From a virus (Duplodnaviria > Heunggongvirae > Uroviricota > Caudoviricetes), in the IMG/VR virus record IMGVR_UViG_2648501787_000002: 9,468 bases of DNA. One strand, given 5' to 3'. The notes under the pieces were generated by a model, which saw only the letters and a list, made by a program, of their open reading frames with translations, did no database searches and had not been told where the DNA came from. The position numbers were made by a program, and so were the translations under genes. This document shows, in pieces, positions 1-9,468 of this stretch. How positions within the stretch are numbered: the stretch's first letter is position 1; each line of letters starts with the position of its first letter.

Positions 1-98
<98 letters not shown>

Positions 99-100
99 CC

Positions 101-400
101 TCAGAACTCCATCTGGATTTGTTCAGAACGCTCGGTCTTGCACACCGGGCGTTTTTTCTTTGTGATTTCATCAAGCGCATACTTAAAAGCCCTGCTAATC
201 GGGCTGATGTCTGATGCCATTCCGAAAGCACACAAGACCGAAGCAATAAATCTCCAGTCCGTTCTGCTTATCTTCGATTCATGACAGCCAATCATCTTTG
301 CCAGACCGCGCTGTGTAAGCGTTGACAGGTTAATGAGTAAATATGTTTCTGCGCGATCAACGTCGCGCTGTGATAGTTTGCTGTAACTTGTTTGTTCCAT
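101..400 (-). CDS. cII: CII-like transcriptional activator (lysogeny establishment); C-terminal end lambda-like, N-terminal two thirds divergent
   Basis: 99-aa ORF directly downstream of cro on the same strand. C-terminus KKRPVCKTERSEQIQMEF closely matches my recollection of lambda CII (NKKRPAATERSEQIQMEF). Central helix-turn-helix-like segment TQRGLAKMIGCHESKISR. Same size class as lambda CII. Confidence 0.75.
   Translation of the reverse strand: MEQTSYSKLSQRDVDRAETYLLINLSTLTQRGLAKMIGCHESKISRTDWRFIASVLCAFGMASDISPISRAFKYALDEITKKKRPVCKTERSEQIQMEF
129..160 (+). terminator. Rho-independent terminator of an oop-like antisense RNA, inside the 3' end of cII
   Basis: Stem cgctcggt / accgggcg (8 bp, one G-U wobble), loop cttgcac, then tttttt. 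Flanking sequence matches my recollection of the lambda oop RNA 3' region (CAGAACUCCAUCUGGAUUUGUUCAGAACGCUCGG...GGGCGUUUUUU). Confidence 0.5.
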
Positions 401-485
401 TTCTTAAGATTTCCAGTAGTGAATAGTTAGTTGAAAGGTATGCGTGGAAACGCATATGGCCTTAGTTGGTCAGATATCTTGGGAC

Positions 486-500
486 TCGCTTTGTCAGCGA
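486..500 (-). promoter_or_regulatory. nutR boxB-like RNA hairpin (N-utilisation site), with a possible boxA at about 518..531
   Basis: Minus-strand RNA reads UCGCUGACAAAGCGA: 5-bp stem with GACAA loop, just downstream of the cro stop. Same loop as the hairpin at 2678..2692 downstream of pL, with a compensatory change in the outer stem pair. Upstream CGCUAUUUUCACAA resembles boxA (CGCUCUUA). Confidence 0.6.
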
Positions 501-538
501 CGTAGGACGAATGTCCATTGTGAAAATAGCGGTGTTAC

Positions 539-748
<210 letters not shown>

Positions 749-763
749 TTAGTACATGCAACC

Positions 764-1553
<790 letters not shown>

Positions 1554-1560
1554 CACGTAA

Positions 1561-1998
1561 ATGATTAAAGAACGTATTTCTTATATCATTCCGATTGCGA
1601 TGGATGAAGGCAACCCAGTAACTCCAGTTCTTATCTATGAAATGGATAAAGACTCCCATGAAGTGGATCTATCATTTGGCGCTTTTTTTATCGGCCTTAA
1701 GGCTACAAAAAAATATTCCATAGGCATTGAGGTTTTCAATGCTCAAGAAATACCGATACCAATTGACACAAAACTGTACTCCAACCATAAGTTTTTTACG
1801 GTAGCAGAAGCCAACGATGGAGAAACCATCGTATCAACTTCTATGAGAATTAACTTCCCAAGGGTGAAAATTATCAAGCCTGGGATATTCGAAGTTAGAG
1901 CATCTCTGGTTAATCCTGATAAAGGCGAAGTAATTGATGTAAAAAGTTCGTTTTTTGACGTGAAGATAACAGGATCAGTTCGCGATGAGTTTAGATAA
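1561..1998 (+). CDS. Hypothetical soluble protein, first gene of a two-gene cargo module in the rexA-rexB slot
   Basis: 145-aa ORF starting 8 nt after the cI stop on the same strand. No recognisable resemblance to RexA or any family I know. Appears more AT-rich than cI. Overlaps the next ORF by 14 nt. Confidence 0.6.
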   Translation: MIKERISYIIPIAMDEGNPVTPVLIYEMDKDSHEVDLSFGAFFIGLKATKKYSIGIEVFNAQEIPIPIDTKLYSNHKFFTVAEANDGETIVSTSMRINFPRVKIIKPGIFEVRASLVNPDKGEVIDVKSSFFDVKITGSVRDEFR

Positions 1999-2356
1999 CA
2001 AGGTTGCTCAGCTTCGTCCAAATCAAAACATATCTCGCCCAATTGGACACTATTCCACTGATGATGCATACTCACGGCATGGTGGAGGAAACGGCGGAGG
2101 TAACATGCTTGAGGCTAGAGTTGCAAAGCTAGAGTCTGATGTTGAATACATCAAGCGCGATCTCGCTGAAGTAAAGTCAGATATAAAATCTGTAGATTCT
2201 CGTCTGTCAGGTATTGAGACAAGCATTAGCTCAGCAAAAATCACCATCAAGGCATCTGCGGTCGTTGTCAGTTTCGTGTTCGCATTTTGCGCCTACATTT
2301 TTGGAAGTTATGTTTCCAAAATCCTTGATGCCTTAAACGGACTCGTTCTTAAGTAA
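1985..2356 (+). CDS. Hypothetical small membrane protein: Gly-rich linker, coiled-coil segment and one C-terminal transmembrane helix
   Basis: 123-aa ORF with GGGNGGGN linker, heptad-like LEARVAKLESDVEYIKRDLAEVKSDIKSVDSRL, and hydrophobic stretch ASAVVVSFVFAFCAYIFGSYV. AGGAT lies 9 nt upstream of the ATG. Followed by a strong terminator. Not RexB-like (RexB is polytopic). Confidence 0.6.
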   Translation: MSLDNKVAQLRPNQNISRPIGHYSTDDAYSRHGGGNGGGNMLEARVAKLESDVEYIKRDLAEVKSDIKSVDSRLSGIETSISSAKITIKASAVVVSFVFAFCAYIFGSYVSKILDALNGLVLK

Positions 2357-2361
2357 CACAC

Positions 2362-2389
2362 AACCCGGCCTCAGCGCCGGGTTTTCTTT
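2362..2389 (+). terminator. Rho-independent terminator ending the cI-cargo (pRM) transcript
   Basis: Stem cccggc / gccggg (6 bp, extendable by two A-T pairs), loop ctcagc, then ttttcttt. Confidence 0.7.
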
Positions 2390-2546
2390 GCCTCACGATC
2401 CCCTTCACCCAATAACACATAACCAATTGTATTTATTTGAAAATTAATAGATACAACTCACTAAACATCGCAATTCAGATCTCTCGATCACCTCCCAAGC
2501 CACACCCCCCTGCAAAAAAATAAATCTATATAAAAAACATACAGAT

Positions 2547-2609
2547 AACCATCTGCGGTGATAAATTATCTCTGGCGGTGTTGACATAAATACCACTGGC
2601 GGTGATACT
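2547..2609 (+). promoter_or_regulatory. Left operator/promoter: oL3 (2547..2563), oL2 (2567..2583), oL1 (2591..2607); pL -35 TTGACA (2581..2586), -10 GATACT (2604..2609)
   Basis: Sequence ...ACATACAGATAACCATCTGCGGTGATAAATTATCTCTGGCGGTGTTGACATAAATACCACTGGCGGTGATACT matches lambda oL/pL as I recall it. Lambda similarity ends a few bases downstream of the -10. Confidence 0.9.
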
Positions 2610-2677
2610 AAACACATCAGCAGGACGCACTACTCACCAGGGCGGTGAATATACAACGATTCGAATATGAATCTACG

Positions 2678-2692
2678 GCGCTGACAAAGCGC
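2678..2692 (+). promoter_or_regulatory. nutL boxB-like RNA hairpin
   Basis: GCGCUGACAAAGCGC: 5-bp stem with GACAA loop, about 65 nt downstream of the expected pL start. Matches the P22-type boxB as I recall it and pairs with the site at 486..500. Confidence 0.65.
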
Positions 2693-2857
2693 AATAACCA
2701 AAGTGAACTTTGGGGTGTGGTGAAGGGTTCATGGACGGGAATATGTCGCACGTAAAGCGGCGAGGCCTGCGGGACTATTGCCGAATTGAAGTAGGCCGAA
2801 ACAGGTCGAAATGGGTCTCCCACCTACCACACCACCAAAGTTCATCAGGAGGTCTAT

Positions 2858-3241
2858 ATGACACGCAGAACTCAGTTCAAAGGCAATTCACGTTCTCGTC
2901 GTCGTGAGCGTTTAAAGGCAAAGGCATTAGCTAACGGCGTACTGGCCCGCGAAGAAGCAATAAGTTCAGAAGTATTACACCGCCCTACTCTAAGCAGAGC
3001 GCAGATTCAGGCTAAAGGTACTCACGAAACGCCTGAGCGCATAGAAGACGCTAAGCCAATTAAGTTCATGGCACAGGACGTGATCTGGCAACAGAAAGAA
3101 TACAGACGCAATCTGGAGCGAGCGGCCATTGTGTACGCGAATGAGTTTGGACATAAGCAACCAGAAACTGGTGTATGTCTTCCAAACGTAGCTCTTTACG
3201 CGGCAGGCTACAGGAAATCAAAACAACTGACAGCGAGATGA
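2858..3241 (+). CDS. N: N-type transcription antitermination protein, P22 gp24-like rather than lambda N
   Basis: 127-aa ORF, first gene after pL/nutL. AGGAGG lies 5 nt upstream. N-terminal arginine-rich motif (GNSRSRRRERLKAKAL). C-terminus VALYAAGYRKSKQLTAR resembles the P22 gene 24 C-terminus (VALYAAGHRKSKQITAR) as I recall it. Confidence 0.75.
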   Translation: MTRRTQFKGNSRSRRRERLKAKALANGVLAREEAISSEVLHRPTLSRAQIQAKGTHETPERIEDAKPIKFMAQDVIWQQKEYRRNLERAAIVYANEFGHKQPETGVCLPNVALYAAGYRKSKQLTAR

Positions 3242-3284
3242 CGATACCCCGCCAACTAGGGCACTAACCGACAGGAGCATGACC

Positions 3285-3422
3285 ATGAATAACGATAACG
3301 AAGCACTTAAAGAAATGATTGCGAAACTTCTTGAAGATGCCCGCCGCCTTCAGGTAGTGGAGCCAAACGCAGGGACACAATCACGCATTGATGAAGCGAT
3401 GAAATTGCTCAAAGCAGAATAA
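3285..3422 (+). CDS. Hypothetical small protein (45 aa, predicted helical)
   Basis: ATG 7 nt after AGGAG; translates to MNNDNEALKEMIAKLLEDARRLQVVEPNAGTQSRIDEAMKLLKAE. Below the ORF-track length cut-off. Sits where lambda has ral but does not resemble Ral. Confidence 0.3.
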   Translation: MNNDNEALKEMIAKLLEDARRLQVVEPNAGTQSRIDEAMKLLKAE

Positions 3423-3456
3423 GCTCAGGCAGCAAACCACTTATTTGAGGTGAGAT

Positions 3457-3708
3457 ATGGAATTTCATGAAAGTGCGATTTATGATTTTCGCGCTAACGC
3501 AAATTCAGTAAAACCACTGCCAATTGCAGTTCTTTTTAAAACAATGGGGGCGTGGGCTGTTTTATGCTTCGCCTCTGATGACACTGACGCAAGAATGGCA
3601 ATAAGCCAAGAGATGGAGATGGACCCGACAAACGATGAATTCATAATTTATGGCGCTCCATCTAATTACTTACTTGATACCTGCAACATTTACAACAAGG
3701 CTGCCTGA
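3457..3708 (+). CDS. Hypothetical protein (83 aa)
   Basis: ORF with GAGGTGA ribosome-binding site upstream, same strand as the pL operon. No recognisable family. Confidence 0.5.
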   Translation: MEFHESAIYDFRANANSVKPLPIAVLFKTMGAWAVLCFASDDTDARMAISQEMEMDPTNDEFIIYGAPSNYLLDTCNIYNKAA

Positions 3709-3766
3709 TGGTGGCCTTTATTTTTGTCCGTAAATAATTTCATGCTTATTACAATCAAGGTGATAT

Positions 3767-4216
3767 ATGGAAGAACAAGCAAACAAGATTCTCGTAGAAC
3801 TACTGCAAAAAGCCAGTAATGGAATAGACGCGGCTGTTTCATTTAGCCAGGCACAGATTCCTGATGTTGTTCATCAGTTGCTGCTATGGAATATGGTTGA
3901 CAGTCTGATTAAAACATTAATAGCCATTCTAACAATCCCACTGGTTTTCTGGTTTATGAAGAAGCAGTGCCAAAGAGTTGAGACAGGTAAAATCGGTGAT
4001 GAAGGATACTCATGTGAGAGGGGAAATCCCAAATACAGGCCGACAATGGTTTGGGATAGCAAAGGAGATATTAACCTTCTTATCGTGCCATTGGTTGGAG
4101 TTTTGACTCTGTGGGGGATTTTTATTATTGGTGTAGTAACCAATATGACTTGGTTAAAAATTTGGCTGGCCCCAAAACTTTACCTTATCGAATATGCAGC
4201 ATCATTGGTTAAGTAA
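3767..4216 (+). CDS. Membrane protein with two predicted transmembrane helices; possible superinfection-exclusion (SieB-like) protein by position
   Basis: 149-aa ORF with AGGTGA ribosome-binding site. Hydrophobic segments LIKTLIAILTIPLVFWFM and LLIVPLVGVLTLWGIFIIGVV. Lambdoid phages carry sieB/ral-type genes just downstream of N. Functional call is positional only. Confidence 0.5.
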   Translation: MEEQANKILVELLQKASNGIDAAVSFSQAQIPDVVHQLLLWNMVDSLIKTLIAILTIPLVFWFMKKQCQRVETGKIGDEGYSCERGNPKYRPTMVWDSKGDINLLIVPLVGVLTLWGIFIIGVVTNMTWLKIWLAPKLYLIEYAASLVK

Positions 4217-4404
4217 TTTCAGGCCGTATAATCGTCCTTCATTTTTGGCATAAACAACAGAATAAATACTGCACTGTGTATTCATTCCAACGAGTGAATA
4301 CACGGAGCAATGTCGCTCGTAACTAAACAGGAGCCGACTTGTTCTGATTATTGGAAATCTTCTTTGCCCTCCAATGTGAGGGCGATTTTTTTGACGGAGG
4401 AATT

Positions 4405-4821
4405 ATGGAAATTACAGATATTCTGGTTAATCCAGATAATTACGACCGATTCAATATCTCTACTCAATCAGTTGATTTGGGTTGCGCAACTGTCAGCGCA
4501 TGGCTACTTAATGGTAAACAGTTGGATAAATGCCTTGATGCACATATGACGGTTAACAGCTTCCTTGCAGAAAAAACACACTGGCAAGATGCTGGAGGGA
4601 AATATGCTGGATGGCTTGAAAGCATGGGATTTGAATATCAATCTGATGAAGGTTGGTGGAGCCTTATAGCTGTAACGCCTGAGACAATAGAATGCTTCGT
4701 TAAATACTCAAACGACGATGACTATAAACACCAGGTGGATTCTGCGATAGAAAGATACAAAAGAAAATCGTTCAACCACGAAATATCATCAGTTCTTGAT
4801 TTCATAGAAATCTTCAAATAA
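4405..4821 (+). CDS. Hypothetical protein (138 aa)
   Basis: Probable start at ATG 4405 (GGAGG 5 nt upstream), in frame with the longer 4351 ORF in the track. No recognisable family. Confidence 0.5.
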   Translation: MEITDILVNPDNYDRFNISTQSVDLGCATVSAWLLNGKQLDKCLDAHMTVNSFLAEKTHWQDAGGKYAGWLESMGFEYQSDEGWWSLIAVTPETIECFVKYSNDDDYKHQVDSAIERYKRKSFNHEISSVLDFIEIFK

Positions 4822-4904
4822 GCCGCCAAGCGCGGCTTTACCGCATACCAATAATGCTTCACGAGAGGCATTTTCGTTATGCAATCAAATATAAGGAGTT
4901 ACCC

Positions 4905-5039
4905 ATGATGCACTTTCAGCTCGCGGGTAGCGGCGTCATGTCCGCTTTCTACCCGCACGAATCTGAATTATCACGCCGAGTTAAACAATTAATCAGAGCA
5001 GCAAAGAAACAACTGGAGGCGTTATGCGCAATGAAATAG
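4905..5039 (+). CDS. cIII: CIII-like small protein (candidate FtsH/HflB inhibitor that stabilises CII)
   Basis: Probable start at ATG 4905 (AGGAG upstream). 44 aa, MMHFQLAGSGVMSAFYPHESELSRRVKQLIRAAKKQL... Core resembles lambda CIII as I recall it (AIAGWPVAGCPSESLLERITRKLRDGWKRLI). Correct position in the pL operon. Confidence 0.5.
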   Translation: MMHFQLAGSGVMSAFYPHESELSRRVKQLIRAAKKQLEALCAMK

Positions 5040-5176
5040 CCATCAATCACCAGATGCTTCGTGCTGCACAAAACAAAGCAGTAATAGCCAGATTTATTGG
5101 TGATTCCAAAATGTGGCTTGAAGCAAATAAAGCGATGAAATCAGCTATCAACCTTCCGTGGTATCGCAGGAAATGA
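5024..5176 (+). CDS. Hypothetical small protein (50 aa), possibly Kil-like
   Basis: ATG 5024 with GGAGG upstream; overlaps the end of the cIII-like ORF. Translates to MRNEIAINHQMLRAAQNKAVIARFIGDSKMWLEANKAMKSAINLPWYRRK. Position (immediately after cIII) matches lambda kil. Similarity to Kil is from uncertain memory. Confidence 0.35.
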   Translation: MRNEIAINHQMLRAAQNKAVIARFIGDSKMWLEANKAMKSAINLPWYRRK

Positions 5177-5331
5177 GTTTTACAGATAACTGGTCAGACG
5201 AAGAATTCATTCGTCAGATGAAAGAATTAATCGGTAACGAAGGAGATATTCATGTCACTTGCAACCACAGTGAAGGAGAGCAAGTTACAGAGACGCATGT
5301 ACACGCAGAAAGCTCTCTGGTATCGCCATAA
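5173..5331 (+). CDS. Hypothetical small acidic protein (52 aa)
   Basis: ATG 5173 overlaps the stop of the preceding ORF (ATGA). Translates to MSFTDNWSDEEFIRQMKELIGNEGDIHVTCNHSEGEQVTETHVHAESSLVSP, about 11 acidic and 2 basic residues. Competes with the alternative-frame ORF 5252..5422. Confidence 0.3.
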   Translation: MSFTDNWSDEEFIRQMKELIGNEGDIHVTCNHSEGEQVTETHVHAESSLVSP

Positions 5332-5422
5332 TGGTGACCGCGAAGGAATGCGGGTATGCCTTAACTTGTCCCGAGTCGAAGTATTAAATCAGCGTTATTT
5401 CCTTGTGCCGTGTCCATTCTGA
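5252..5422 (+). CDS. Hypothetical small basic protein (56 aa), alternative frame to 5173..5331
   Basis: ATG 5252 lies 6 nt after AAGGAG. Translates to MSLATTVKESKLQRRMYTQKALWYRHNGDREGMRVCLNLSRVEVLNQRYFLVPCPF. Ends 8 nt before the annealase gene. I cannot tell which of the two overlapping frames is real, or whether both are. Confidence 0.3.
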   Translation: MSLATTVKESKLQRRMYTQKALWYRHNGDREGMRVCLNLSRVEVLNQRYFLVPCPF

Positions 5423-5430
5423 GGTGAATT

Positions 5431-6129
5431 ATGGATTTGAATAAATTCGATGAGCCATTCAGCCCCGAAGATATCGAATGGCGAATACAGCAAAGCGGTA
5501 AAACACGCGATGGCAAGGTGTGGGCTATGGTGCTGGCTTATGTCACGAACCGGGCAATCATGAAACGCCTGGACGATGTTTGCGGCAAAGCAGGATGGCG
5601 CAATGAATACCGCGATATTCCCAACAACGGCGGAGTTGAATGCGGCATATCAATCAAGATTGATTCCGAATGGGTAACCAAATGGGATGCTGCTGAAAAC
5701 ACGCAGGTAGAAGCCGTCAAAGGTGGTCGTTCCGGTGCAATGAAGCGTGCTGCCGTTCAATGGGGAATCGGTCGGTATCTGTATAACCTTGAGGAAGGTT
5801 TCGCACAAACATCTCTCGATAAAAAGCAGGGATGGCACAGGGCAAAACTGAAAGATGGAACAGGATTTTACTGGTCCCCTCCATCGCTGCCGGGATGGGC
5901 AATCCCAGCATCAGATAACAAACCATCACCAGAAAATACCAACCAGAAATCTCCATCGGTTGACTGCGAACAAATCCTGAAAGACTTCAGCGATTATGCG
6001 TCAACAGAAACTGACAAGAAAAAACTCATCGAGCGTTATCAGCGTGACTGGCAATTAATGGCTGGCAACGAGGAAGCGCAGGCTAAATGCGTTCAGGTAA
6101 TGAACATCAGAGTTAACGAACTAAAATAG
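5431..6129 (+). CDS. Single-strand annealing protein (Rad52/Erf-type recombinase) with a C-terminal extension
   Basis: 232-aa ORF with GAGGTGA ribosome-binding site. Contains AMKRAAVQWGIGRYLY, reminiscent of the Rad52 annealing-domain motif (KRALRSFGNALG in human Rad52). Immediately upstream of an SSB gene. C-terminal KKKLIERYQRDWQL region recalls P22 Erf from memory. Confidence 0.65.
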   Translation: MDLNKFDEPFSPEDIEWRIQQSGKTRDGKVWAMVLAYVTNRAIMKRLDDVCGKAGWRNEYRDIPNNGGVECGISIKIDSEWVTKWDAAENTQVEAVKGGRSGAMKRAAVQWGIGRYLYNLEEGFAQTSLDKKQGWHRAKLKDGTGFYWSPPSLPGWAIPASDNKPSPENTNQKSPSVDCEQILKDFSDYASTETDKKKLIERYQRDWQLMAGNEEAQAKCVQVMNIRVNELK

Positions 6130-6138
6130 GCGGCATAA

Positions 6139-6600
6139 ATGGCAAGCAGAGGCGTAAATAAGGTGATTATCCTTGGTCGGGTAGGACAAGACCCGGAAGT
6201 TCGATACTCACCATCAGGTACAGCGTTCGCTAACCTGACAATAGCCACGTCAGAACAATGGCGAGATAAAAATACTGGCGAGCAAAAGGAATTGACTGAA
6301 TGGCATCGTGTTGCTGTATCCGGGAAACTGGCTGAGGTCGTGGGGCAGTATGTGAAAAAAGGTGATCAGATTTATTTCGAGGGAATGCTGAGAACCAGAA
6401 AGTGGAAAGACCAGTCAGGGCAAGACCGTTACACAACCGAGGTTCATGTCGGAATTAATGGCGTGATGCAAATGCTTGGCGGCATTGGCGACAGCAAACA
6501 ACAAGCAGCCAGCAGGCAATCACAGAAGCCACAGCAGCAATCATCACCAGCACAACACAACGAACCTCCTATGAACTTCGACGATGAGATCCCATTTTAA
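6139..6600 (+). CDS. ssb: Single-stranded DNA-binding protein (SSB)
   Basis: 153-aa ORF. N-terminus [23 protein letters not shown] and [11 protein letters not shown] match E. coli SSB closely. Gln/Pro-rich linker and acidic tail NFDDEIPF (E. coli: DFDDDIPF). Confidence 0.92.
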
Positions 6601-6615
6601 TCATTGGGAGAAAAT

Positions 6616-7083
6616 ATGATCACTTGCAAAAAATGTGGAGAGAATAAACCACCTAATGGTTTTTATCCTAGAAATAAGGTGTGCAAGGAATGCACTAAAA
6701 AACGAGTAACTGAATATCAAAAAGGAATAGGAAAGCTAATACATAATAATGCTTGCAAAAAATATAACAAAAGCGAAAAGGGCAAGGTTGCATTAAGCAA
6801 AGCAAGAGAGAACTATCTGGAATCTCATCGCCAAAGACAGCAAGCAAGATGGTCAGTCAAACGGGCAATTAAATCTGGTAAGTTATGTAGACCAACAACG
6901 TGTCAGAAATGCAACAGCAAATGCCACCCAGACGCTCACCACTGCGATTACAGTAAACCTCTTGAAGTGATGTGGCTATGCAAAGCATGTCATGTTGAAT
7001 GGCACAAGCACAACAAGCCAATATATCCAGACGAGGAACCAGTAACTCTCCCCTTCCCTCGTCACGCTATTAACGCAATTTAA
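6616..7083 (+). CDS. Cys-rich zinc-binding protein with an HNH-endonuclease-like motif
   Basis: Probable start at ATG 6616 (GGGAG upstream; the track's 6604 start is a TTG). N-terminal CxxC...CxxC zinc ribbon; C-terminal CQKCNSKCHPDAHHCDYSKPLEVMWLCKACHVEWH fits an HNH pattern (H-x-D-H-H ... C-x2-C-H-x3-H). Confidence 0.5.
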   Translation: MITCKKCGENKPPNGFYPRNKVCKECTKKRVTEYQKGIGKLIHNNACKKYNKSEKGKVALSKARENYLESHRQRQQARWSVKRAIKSGKLCRPTTCQKCNSKCHPDAHHCDYSKPLEVMWLCKACHVEWHKHNKPIYPDEEPVTLPFPRHAINAI

Positions 7084-7096
7084 TCAGGAGAAAAAC

Positions 7097-7393
7097 ATGC
7101 CAGCGCCTTTGTATGGTGCGGATGACGCGCGCCGCTGTTCCGGCAATTCCGTATCGGAGGTGCTGGATAAATTCAGAAAAAACTACGATCGAATAATGTC
7201 TCTACCGCAGGAAACGAAAGAGGAAAAGGAATTTCGCCACTGTATATGGCTTGCAGAGAAAGAAGAACGCGAGCGAATTTACCAGACATCAATCCGACCA
7301 TTCCGCAAAGCCACATATACCCACTTCCCTGAATATATCGACCCGCGCCTGCGTAATTACCGCTCACGCTATGGCGCTATCAGTAATGACTGA
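7097..7393 (+). CDS. Hypothetical protein (98 aa)
   Basis: ORF with AGGAG ribosome-binding site, same strand as the operon. No recognisable family. Confidence 0.5.
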
Positions 7394-7403
7394 GGAATTT
7401 ACC

Positions 7404-7571
7404 ATGAGAGGACTTGCATACAATCCCGGCATTCTTCCGGCAGAAATGATTATTCGCCAGCGCGTAAAGCCAATGCCATCGAGAGAGGAATTGCTTAAGA
7501 GAAATTCTTTTCCGTCAGTGAATCAAAACAAATATCTGAATGCGATGTGGCGCAAAGGAGGCAACCAGTGA
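7404..7571 (+). CDS. Hypothetical small protein (55 aa)
   Basis: ATG 7404 with GAGGA upstream; in frame with the tail of track ORF 7251..7571. Its stop overlaps the next start (GTGA). Confidence 0.4.
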
Positions 7572-8374
7572 GCAAGATTGACTATCAGGTACTGCGTGCC
7601 AAGGCAGAAAAAGCAACGTGTGGTGTATGGTCGCTCGAATATGGAGAGGGCCGATTTGATGGTGATGATGCACTAATTCATCGCGAGGCTGCTGGATATA
7701 TTCCCATTTGCAGAATTGAAGGAGCGCATCCAGAAAGCGGTTTCGATGAAGATTTCCAAATGGAACAGCAGGCCAATGCTGAATTCATCGCCGCAGCCAA
7801 TCCGGCTACCGTCTTGGCGCTGCTTGGCGAGCTGGAAGCAGCAGAGAACAACCTTATTGATAGTGAATGCCATGTTGCTGAACTGGAAGAAGCGCTACGC
7901 GATAAGCAGGCGTTACTTGAAGCATCAGAAAAGCGCATAGCAGAACTGGAAGCCGAACTCGTAAGCCAAACTTACAAGTTGCCAGAATTAATCGAGGGCA
8001 TGGAAGTTTCCATTGATGTAAGCACTTGTGATGCTGATTTAGGTAATCGCTATTTCGGCACCGTCACCGAGGCGTTAGAACTTGATACTGCCAAGAATGG
8101 TTACATCCTCCTGGTTCAGGACGCAGAGCCAAACTTCGATGTAAATGGCAACTCTCCGGTAACTCCGGATGGTTGGATAAGCTGTAGTGATCGAATGCCG
8201 GATGATGGTCAGCACGTAATTATTTTATGTGATGGCGCATTCGTTCTTTATGCGCAATATCGAGACAGTGAGTTTTTTGATGTTGTCCGCAATGGTGAGG
8301 AGTTCTTCGAAACGCAGAGCCGCAATGTAACCCACTGGATGCCGCTACCGGAACCGCCGCAGGAGGTAAAGTGA
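7568..8374 (+). CDS. Ea22-like prophage protein (coiled-coil middle region, DUF551-like C-terminal domain)
   Basis: Probable GTG start at 7568, 6 nt after AAAGGAGG (track shows a longer 7547 start). N-terminus [21 protein letters not shown], central coiled coil ([47 protein letters not shown]), C-terminal [14 protein letters not shown]...HWMPLPEPP. Assignment is from memory of prophage Ead/Ea22-like proteins. Confidence 0.55.
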
Positions 8375-8658
8375 TGGACTCCTTCGCGAAATATACGATT
8401 ATTGACTGGATAGCATTCCTTCAGGTTTTGCTCATCTGGTTTTATATGGCTTACAGGAGTGGACAGTGGATTGTCAGTGTAGCCTGTAGCAGGGGATGGC
8501 GTTGGTGGAACCGAAAGAATAAAAAAGCACTGGCCTTGGATTCGTTTTACGAAGCATTCAATCTTAACAGCCTTCAGCCTGGTTCTGTCATTGTAGTCAC
8601 CACTCAAAGCGGCATGACGATACAAATTCACAAGCCAAAGGAGGAAGGTCGTGGCTAA
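8374..8658 (+). CDS. Hypothetical small protein with one predicted N-terminal transmembrane helix
   Basis: ATG 8374 lies 7 nt after AGGAGG and overlaps the upstream stop (TGATG). Hydrophobic IIDWIAFLQVLLIWFYMAY segment. Confidence 0.45.
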   Translation: MDSFAKYTIIDWIAFLQVLLIWFYMAYRSGQWIVSVACSRGWRWWNRKNKKALALDSFYEAFNLNSLQPGSVIVVTTQSGMTIQIHKPKEEGRG

Positions 8659-8932
8659 CCTGCAACTTGCCGTCAAAGGTGAATACTTCAACGCCATGAT
8701 TCGCGGGGAGAAAACGGAAGAGTATCGCCTGTGCAATGACTACTGGAATAAACGCCTCGTTAATCGTAAGTATGACCGCCTGATTATCACAAAGGGATAT
8801 CCGAAGCGCGACGATTCCAGCCGCAGAATTGACGTCCCGTATGACGGATATGAAATCAAGACAATCACACATCCGCACTTCGGCGATAAACCGGTAACGG
8901 TATTCGCGATAAAGGTGAATATCAATTGCTAA
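8651..8932 (+). CDS. Small PUA/ASCH-like (DUF3850-type) protein
   Basis: GTG start 6 nt after AGGAGG. N-terminal KGEYFNAMIRGEKTEEYR resembles the ASCH/DUF3850 signature (Y-F-x-x-I-x-x-G-x-K-T-x-E-x-R) as I recall it. Confidence 0.45.
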   Translation: MANLQLAVKGEYFNAMIRGEKTEEYRLCNDYWNKRLVNRKYDRLIITKGYPKRDDSSRRIDVPYDGYEIKTITHPHFGDKPVTVFAIKVNINC

Positions 8933-8956
8933 ATTAGTAGCATAGCATAAAGATGC

Positions 8957-8980
8957 TTGCATTAATGAAGTGTGTATAAT
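8957..8980 (+). promoter_or_regulatory. Candidate sigma70 promoter (consensus -10 TATAAT at 8975..8980; TTGCAT at 8957..8962)
   Basis: Perfect TATAAT preceded by TGTG, in an AT-rich intergenic region upstream of ORF 9046..9237. The TTGCAT element is only 12 bp upstream, so it is unlikely to be the true -35. Confidence 0.3.
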
Positions 8981-9045
8981 AACGCCTCATCAATAGTAAA
9001 CTACTGAAATAGCAAAAAAAATGCATATTAAAGAGGATTCAAAAA

Positions 9046-9237
9046 TTGAAAATGTTCATGCAAATAGACAGACGCATAGATATTAATGGCAATTCATACT
9101 TAGTTAGATGCGAAGAGAGGCCTAACGGTGAGTGGCGTGTATATGATATTGACCGTAAGATCAATATCAGCACCATGAACAAAGACACTGCCTTTGATGA
9201 ATGGAAAGCTGAAGCTAAAAAACAACATAATTCGTAA
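9046..9237 (+). CDS. Hypothetical small protein (63 aa), stand-alone moron-like gene
   Basis: TTG 9046 or ATG 9052 start downstream of AAGAGGA. Bracketed by a candidate promoter and a rho-independent terminator. No recognisable family. Confidence 0.4.
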   Translation: MKMFMQIDRRIDINGNSYLVRCEERPNGEWRVYDIDRKINISTMNKDTAFDEWKAEAKKQHNS

Positions 9238-9280
9238 AATTACAAAAACCCTAACCAATTGATGGATTTCTTTTATCTGA

Positions 9281-9305
9281 ACTCGCTACGGCGAGTTTTG
9301 TTTTA
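9281..9305 (+). terminator. Rho-independent terminator
   Basis: Stem actcgc / gcgagt (6 bp), loop tacg, then ttttgtttt. Confidence 0.65.
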
Positions 9306-9368
9306 TGGAGATGATAAATGAACTTCCGAGTTACAGGTGAATGGAATGGAGAGCCATTCAACAGGGTT

Positions 9369-9468
<100 letters not shown>

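Follow-up and report, generated by a model that had tools for sequence, protein, structure and literature searches.

In bacteriophage lambda, sieB/orf28, ral and ea10 lie in the early-left (pL) operon ahead of cIII. Ral is a small basic protein (isoelectric point (pI) 8.8). The sieB gene, on the strand opposite to pL, has a promoter of its own and is active in the lysogen (P22 annotation), and the function of Ea10 is not understood (bioRxiv 10.1101/2024.10.31.621285). Between ral and ea10, lambda encodes PreS (formerly LPR1), an Hfq-bound small RNA (sRNA) of ~88 nucleotides (nt) that is processed to ~68 nt and ends at the terminator tL2a; PreS is detected in lytic growth and not in the lysogen, activates dnaN translation and supports phage replication (bioRxiv 10.1101/2024.10.31.621285). 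Here we analyzed a 9,468-nt stretch of viral DNA (Caudoviricetes; IMG/VR record IMGVR_UViG_2648501787_000002), referred to in full as the window. In it lie the immunity and early-left sequences of a lambdoid prophage; the immunity is that of lambda, and pL points rightwards. Our subject is the segment between N and cIII (3285-4821), which takes the place of sieB/orf28, ral and ea10 and carries four open reading frames (ORF1 to ORF4). We consider it probable that this segment is an accessory stretch of the pL operon in which the scaffold of lambda was kept while protein cassettes were exchanged by recombination, an assessment that includes the expression and functions proposed below.

To compare the segment with lambda, we used blastn. 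Three stretches were conserved: 3692-3737, corresponding to the last codons of ral and the following terminator (89% identity), 4236-4391, the ral-ea10 intergenic region with tL2a (97%), and 4822-4881, the ea10-cIII spacer (85%). Because these conserved lambda pieces flank the cassettes, ORF2 replaces ral and ORF4 replaces ea10. ORF3 is an additional cassette, inserted at the ral terminator, and the motif CCTT(T/C)ATTTTTG is present on both of its sides. Exact-protein look-ups in sister prophages showed that the slot after ORF1 is occupied by ORF2, Ral, Nmad5, a DUF7446 protein or a 156-amino acid (aa) protein, and the slot before cIII by ORF4, a DUF2528 protein (Ea10 family), a 322-aa Sf6 gp33-like protein, or nothing. 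The GC content is ~0.39-0.41 across ORF2-ORF4, compared to 0.47-0.51 in N and the recombination genes. An earlier description of this DNA from its letters alone (the sequence-only reading) had assigned the ORFs to the early-left position, in agreement with the lambda scaffold, and had noted no likeness to Ral, SieB or Ea10, as also found in our Pfam, tblastn and hhalign comparisons. It had overlooked the conserved scaffold itself and the PreS gene between ORF3 and ORF4.

The four ORFs (45, 83, 149 and 138 aa) are present on the + strand as that reading had described, with coding evidence for each. All are preceded by a Shine-Dalgarno sequence at proper spacing, such as AGGAG 7 nt upstream of the ATG at 3285 for ORF1 and GGAGG 5 nt upstream of the start of ORF4. 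PHROG profiles were matched end to end in 4/4 cases (for ORF3, residues 1-149 against positions 1-137 of 137), all four families being of unknown function. Ratios of nonsynonymous to synonymous substitution (dN/dS; Nei-Gojobori) relative to diverged homologues were 0.12 for ORF1, 0.12 for ORF2, about 0.35 for ORF3 and 0.10 for ORF4. All four are real protein-coding genes under purifying selection. To describe them as unrecognised, as had been done, was too strong, considering that each is a full-length PHROG member, that ORF3 belongs to the Sf6 gp34 family and that the array is present with 100% identity in a public assembly. Several alternative frames were considered and rejected. A 47-aa version of ORF1 starting at 3279 leaves no spacing for a ribosome binding site (RBS). 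A 156-aa version of ORF4 with a TTG start at 4351 overlaps PreS and tL2a, and the homologues all have 138 aa. A 79-aa ORF at 4310-4549 has the same overlap and is without homologues. No PHROG match was obtained for alternative and antisense ORFs of the segment, and no sieB-like gene was found on the opposite strand.

Links to characterised proteins were not detected. The four proteins had no relevant match in Pfam (E ≤ 0.1), NCBIfam or PADLOC scans, and none to the PADLOC defence-protein models at E ≤ 1. PDB searches with single sequences and family profiles returned nothing below E = 0.1. By blastp, no similarity was observed to P22 gp17, orf78 and orf87, to Sf6 gp33 and gp36, or to the cassettes of E2348/69; positives were limited to ORF3 with Sf6 gp34, ORF2 with HK633_045 and ORF3 with HK633_044. 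Literature searches found no study of these four families, and the sequences are absent from the text supplementary files of an accessory-gene screen (PMC12373910). Profile and structure searches, which the sequence-only reading had suggested as a check, thus identified full-length PHROG families, but no characterised family and no solved structure. The features of the window are listed in the table.

Table. Features of the window, with position, strand and supporting observation.
Feature	Position	Strand	Evidence or remark
cII	101-400	-	ORF list
cro	539-739	-	ORF list
cI	840-1553		99% identical to lambda cI
PL promoter, TTGACA-17-GATACT	2581-2609	+	10/12 matches, promoter scan; in lambda-type OL/PL region
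Putative nutL boxB hairpin, GCGCTGACAAAGCGC	2678-2692	+	Read from sequence; inverted copy near cro
Antiterminator N, 127 aa	2858-3241	+	Pfam N_peptide 1e-15; PHROG 271 1e-38
ORF1, 45-aa acidic helical peptide	3285-3422	+	PHROG 32391, E 4.8e-29
ORF2, 83-aa acidic protein, pI 4.2	3457-3708	+	PHROG 2471, E 3.6e-58; ral slot
Intrinsic terminator homologous to post-ral lambda terminator	3697-3727	+	9-bp stem 3697-3718, T-run to 3727
ORF3, 149-aa protein with two transmembrane helices	3767-4216	+	PHROG 3054, E 3.5e-63; Sf6 gp34 family
Hairpin, 14 bp	4274-4305	+	Directly precedes PreS in the conserved spacer; same sequence in lambda, Sf6 and Gally
PreS/LPR1 orthologue	4305-4392	+	5' end approximate, counted back 88 nt from the last T of the terminator
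Intrinsic terminator tL2a, PreS 3' end	4364-4392	+	8-bp GC-rich stem 4364-4385 plus T7
ORF4, 138-aa acidic protein, pI 4.6	4405-4821	+	PHROG 8967, E 2.9e-86; ea10 slot
Hairpin after ORF4, 7 bp, no T-run	4820-4838	+	In spacer 85% identical to lambda ea10-cIII
cIII, 44 aa	4905-5039	+	Pfam cIII 5e-30; next conserved operon gene; 44 aa in identical public contigs too

We analyzed the non-coding parts of the scaffold by folding and by comparison with related phages. The terminator behind ORF2 has a folding energy of -13.9 kcal/mol (z = -2.5) and is 89% identical to that of lambda. The spacer between ORF3 and ORF4 (4255-4400) reaches -51 kcal/mol (z = -5.8 relative to shuffled controls) and contains the strongest terminator of the region, tL2a; the homologous site in Sf6 is annotated tL2A. 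The sequence-only reading had reported two weak hairpins. The first (3711-3735) corresponds to the real terminator behind ORF2, although the terminator lies slightly further upstream; the second (4821-4839) was reproduced as a hairpin but has no T-run. The strongest terminator and the structured spacer around it had gone unmentioned.

Only one base of the PreS region, in the loop of the terminator, differs from lambda; the region is also unchanged in Sf6 and Gally despite differing flanking genes. As judged by this alignment and by the shared end at the tL2a hairpin and U-tail, it is a near-identical orthologue of lambda PreS, for which alone Hfq binding and dnaN activation have been reported. 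An Rfam 15 scan of the window gave no match; PreS is without an Rfam family. The surroundings are different: upstream, the ORF3 cassette is present here whereas ral is the direct neighbour in lambda, and downstream ORF4 takes the position of ea10. That PreS is unchanged while the genes on both sides have been replaced argues that it is under selection of its own. Thus, with PreS and tL2a identified, the 188-nt gap between ORF3 and ORF4 consists of a known functional RNA gene plus terminator.

A further joint was located at the left end of the segment. The module 3176-3462, in which ORF1 is joined to the 3'-terminal 22 codons of N (CLPNVALYAAGYRKSKQLTAR), is shared at 96% behind N proteins with quite different RNA-binding N-termini, indicating a mosaic joint inside N. 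The exact ORF1 protein always follows N at a fixed distance, behind three N alleles, and ORF1 may be functionally linked to N. Its more distant relatives, with 60-75% identity, are proteins of Pectobacterium, Serratia and Cronobacter phages.

The order of genes and terminators suggests how the segment would be expressed. Upon loss of the repressor, transcription would start from PL, and N, ORF1 and ORF2 would be made together, ahead of the first strong terminator (3697-3727). N acting at nutL would then allow polymerase to read through this terminator and tL2a, into ORF3, PreS, ORF4 and cIII. Consistent with this scheme, a consensus promoter scan found no promoter-like site before ORF3 or ORF4. 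A promoter of its own for ORF3, as in a moron, was considered and rejected, as 3727-3767 contains no acceptable -35/-10 pair. With a start at PL and N-dependent read-through, the genes would act in the early lytic or establishment phase and not in the resting lysogen.

We next consider the individual genes. The ORF2 family is narrow and enterobacterial. Homologues are found in Shiga toxin (Stx) phages (VT2-Sakai), mEp234, HK633, Gally and one Salmonella P22-like phage, and the homologue is located right after N in the Stx2 phages and in the other four; in the Salmonella P22-like phage it coexists with sieB. In HK633 (locus 2531-3206), both cassettes show decay: the stop codon of the ORF2 homologue is gone, giving 129 aa, and of the ORF3 homologue a C-terminal piece of 58 aa is left, indicating that the cassettes are dispensable.

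ORF2 could be an analogue of Ral, that is, an early protein that eases type I restriction, or another defence targeting nucleic acid, on the unmodified incoming genome. ORF2 is situated exactly in the ral slot of the pL operon, directly upstream of the ral terminator, which it has kept together with the last codons of ral (...NKAA). Being encoded ahead of the first strong terminator, it could be synthesized immediately. It is, moreover, a small and strongly acidic protein (net charge -7), and in sister prophages its place is taken by Ral, Nmad5 and other cassettes. In contrast to ORF2, however, Ral is basic, and we detected no sequence relation between the two: there was no Pfam match (Ral, PF11058), tblastn returned nothing, and hhalign gave a probability of 0.07%. 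The narrow family limits inference and a shared slot is no proof of a shared function. We therefore regard a Ral-like activity of ORF2 as rather unlikely.

For ORF4, about 10 close clusters were found, and ORF4 shares ~65% identity with proteins of the virulent Vequintavirinae, where the genes are located among small, almost wholly unannotated genes. An exhaustive HMMER profile search added 63 remote relatives of 110-160 aa. All of those scanned (52/52) matched PHROG 8967; none of the relatives revealed a consistent Pfam domain, with three isolated single-member matches only. The family is uniformly acidic (median pI 4.7) and shares the motif D(W)GG.YA.WL...G(I/F)...(S/T)(D/E).GWWS..A(V/I).P.NI..F. 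A metal-binding site formed by C27, C43 and H47 was considered and rejected, as these residues are not conserved in the remote relatives. A fold search with the predicted structure (predicted local distance difference test (pLDDT) 71) gave no match. ORF4 resembles lambda Ea10 (DUF2528) in its position between the same lambda spacers, in length (138 and 122 aa) and in pI (4.6 and 4.3). In contrast to Ea10, the ORF4 family occurs also in virulent Vequintavirinae, and no sequence relation to Ea10 was found by Pfam or by hhalign with the ORF4 family (probability 0.6%).

ORF3 belongs to a broad family. As the sequence-only reading had noted, the 149-aa protein has two transmembrane (TM) helices, at residues 46-64 and 106-124 (Kyte-Doolittle 19-residue means 2.0 and 2.6), in agreement with the AlphaFold secondary structure. 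A large-database search returned 516 homologous clusters, in which 149-aa proteins from prophages of Escherichia, Salmonella, Citrobacter, Cronobacter and Pantoea predominate. By tblastn against phages, homologues were present in 178 records, including Sf6 gp34, CUS-3 and HK633. Strictly virulent phages also carry them: N4-like Schitoviridae (of Salmonella and Vibrio), phi92 (gp220), and Pseudomonas, Rheinheimera and Ralstonia phages, the last a jumbo phage. Within those phi92 and N4-like genomes that we examined, the homologue is part of the early/middle region, where it is surrounded by small genes, most of them without annotation; next to it in the Pseudomonas, Ralstonia and Rheinheimera phages are genes that lack annotation or belong to nucleotide metabolism. 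Among unannotated records of 128-146 kb under the label 'Campylobacter phage', sixteen contain ORF4 homologues and four contain ORF3 homologues. These labels look doubtful, since the proteins are the same as in E. coli rV5-like and phi92-like phages.

Conservation within the ORF3 family is concentrated next to the membrane. The segment before TM1, ...F..(Q/E)(I/L)P(D/E)V.(H/K/Q)(Q/E)LL.(W/Y), and that after TM2, (W)L(K/Q)I(W)...AP(K/R).(Y)L.E(Y/F)A..L, are nearly invariant. Both are kept in phages of Enterobacteria, Vibrio, Pseudomonas, Ralstonia and Rheinheimera, with an inter-helix loop of 10 to 44 residues. Pairwise identities in the close family average 86% at the N-terminus and 88% at the C-terminus, compared to 56% in TM1, 61% in the loop and 36% in TM2. 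The comparison with Sf6 gp34 (51% protein identity over full length) is similar. The DNA of codons 1-41 is 98.5% identical and that of the C-terminus 89%, and the proteins share the motifs QIPDV.HQLL.W and WLKIW.APKLYLIEYAA, two TM helices, and a location between the ral-slot gene and the tL2A spacer. In contrast, the central 87 codons (TM1, loop and TM2) have no DNA similarity and the encoded protein is only weakly similar. With near-identical ends and a replaced centre, ORF3 is thus an intragenic mosaic. The N-terminus is acidic, and 3-5 Lys/Arg residues are positioned right after TM1. The AlphaFold2 model is of low confidence (pLDDT 60, predicted template modelling score (pTM) 0.34), and Foldseek of this model against BFVD returned nothing.

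The sequence-only reading had suggested, from position and topology only, that ORF3 may act in superinfection exclusion. In its prophage-expressed form, this would mean that ORF3 resides in the inner membrane of the lysogen and blocks the development of incoming phages or the entry of their DNA, by analogy with SieB, P22 SieA and T4 Imm. ORF3 is indeed a two-TM membrane protein encoded in the same genome region as sieB of lambda and P22, and a variable or replaced centre between constant termini could reflect a switch in specificity. Lambda SieB, as translated, also has hydrophobic stretches, in the N-terminal half of the product. However, ORF3 is not related to SieB by sequence (hhalign probability 0.3%; nothing by tblastn of lambda SieB against the window). 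Neither was a Pfam, NCBIfam or PADLOC family found for it at E ≤ 0.1-1 (Pfam, E ≤ 0.1), with no direct comparison made to the SieA or Imm sequences. Unlike sieB, ORF3 is on the pL strand, and no promoter of its own was found upstream by the consensus scan; it is located between terminators in an N-dependent transcript. Note that lambda PreS, which arises from the spacer homologous to that just downstream of ORF3, is undetected in the lysogen. Furthermore, homologues occur in strictly virulent phages (N4-like, phi92-like and jumbo), and in Salmonella phage Oslo an 89%-identical homologue adjoins a genuine sieB. The lack of a promoter, the flanking terminators, the virulent-phage homologues and the coexistence with sieB in Oslo leave an exclusion role expressed in the lysogen unsupported, and we consider it improbable. 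Exclusion during lytic growth, as by T4 Imm, is counted within our preferred explanation of ORF3 and not with this alternative.

A role of ORF3 in host killing or lysis, as a holin-, Kil- or membrane-depolarising type of protein, appears similarly doubtful. The small size and two TM helices are reminiscent of class II holins, and ORF3 is an early gene in the same operon as kil, with homologues among the host-takeover genes of virulent phages. However, no Pfam or PHROG family of known function was matched, including holin, lysis and Kil families, and in the contexts seen the gene is never beside endolysin or spanin genes. Moreover, the conserved parts are the soluble membrane-adjacent segments and not the TM helices, which is unusual for pore formers. 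Finally, that one or more of the ORFs are chance frames or decaying remnants, as might be considered given the 45 aa of ORF1, the decayed HK633 homologues of ORF2 and ORF3 and an insertion sequence (IS) end, of IS100, immediately beside cII, is very unlikely in view of full-length profile matches, good RBSs, dN/dS values of 0.10-0.36 and homologues across genera.

We favor the interpretation that the segment supplies accessory functions of early infection. ORF2 and ORF4, as small acidic proteins, would bind and inhibit host proteins, with counter-defence most plausible, as for Ral in the same slot. ORF3, from a family that is broad and uncharacterised, would be located in the inner membrane during the lytic phase, and its conserved membrane-adjacent segments would engage, during infection, an envelope component common to Proteobacteria; it may have an Imm-like role or act on the envelope in another way. 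These functional assignments, derived from slot and chemistry, are tentative and each is held with low confidence.

Several considerations weigh against our interpretation. Neither acidity nor the slot occupied predicts counter-defence with much strength. Some expression of ral occurs in lambda lysogens, so that the segment may not be completely silent in the prophage. The absence of promoters is the result of a consensus scan, which weak or non-sigma-70 promoters would escape. For ORF3, a topology with a cytoplasmic loop and both termini in the periplasm is mildly favored, by an ambiguous charge bias only. Given the mediocre quality of the models of ORF3 and ORF4, missing fold matches would not be strong evidence for a new fold.

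The regulatory region upstream of the segment is a hybrid, in which cI, OL and PL are lambda-type (90% identity over 2408-2648 with the OL/PL region of lambda), N is not that of lambda, and the presumed nut sites contain a P22-type boxB-like hairpin. A 19-nt stretch at 2673-2691 recurs in inverted orientation at 487-505, downstream of cro, where nutR is expected. It includes GCGCTGACAAAGCGC, which we take to be a P22-type boxB. With the inverted repeat, this suggests that the two sites are likely the nutL/nutR pair. Beyond cIII, Pfam and PHROG scans identified kil, a Rad52-type recombinase and ssb. Between ssb and an anti-RecBCD gene, a 159-aa ORF (6604-7083) with many CxxC pairs is present; it has no Pfam match on record in the identical public contig, and at roughly its place an HNH endonuclease is annotated in E2348/69.

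Two overlapping ORFs at 1561-2356 follow cI directly, in the position of rexA/rexB of lambda. They encode proteins of 145 aa (PHROG 5893) and 123 aa (PHROG 6136), the latter with weak coiled-coil-type Pfam matches (XhlA, LPP) and a weak CorA-like match in PADLOC. Sister prophages contain other cassettes in this position, for example a HigB toxin with two ORFs, or an SDH protease. The two ORFs are probably co-transcribed with cI in the lysogen, and for this reason are better candidates than ORF3 for exclusion or abortive infection expressed from the prophage.

To determine whether the array occurs elsewhere, we searched public genomes. Contig CYBU01000029.1 of assembly GCA_001286005.1 matches positions 1-9370 of the window with 100% identity, and there are other similar places; the four-gene array is therefore already in public data. 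None of 5,426 complete E. coli genomes (0/5,426) and no phage record contained at least 80% of the segment contiguously. The window ends, 1-98 and 9371-9468, form a perfect inverted repeat of 98 nt, which is the end of IS100kyp (IS21 family, end of istB) and was found in 2,979 of the 5,426 E. coli genomes. On the left, the copy directly adjoins the stop codon of cII. As the identical public contig starts in the IS end but continues as prophage DNA past 9370, the right copy reflects either another IS100 insertion or an artefact of assembly.

In conclusion, the array represents textbook lambdoid mosaicism, with conserved linkers (terminators, the sRNA gene and RBS regions) as recombination joints, which is not in itself new. 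The four genes are further examples of the well-known mosaic accessory cassettes, from families already catalogued, and hold no strong surprise for the specialist. ORF2 and ORF4 are cheap candidates for counter-defence screens, given that lambda has Ral and Ea10 in their slots. ORF3 is the best target for experiments, having hundreds of relatives across phage types and host genera and striking conserved motifs. Together with this breadth and conservation, the unaltered PreS gene among exchanged cassettes is the most useful lead. It is conceivable, as a speculative proposal, that the Sf6 gp34 family is a widespread class of early inner-membrane proteins, common to temperate lambdoid/P22-like phages and to virulent N4-like, phi92-like and jumbo phages, whose nearly invariant membrane-adjacent termini target a conserved envelope machine of Proteobacteria, and that ORF2 and ORF4 are new counter-defence inhibitors. 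If so, the Sf6 gp34 family would represent a new mechanism of infection-phase exclusion or envelope takeover.

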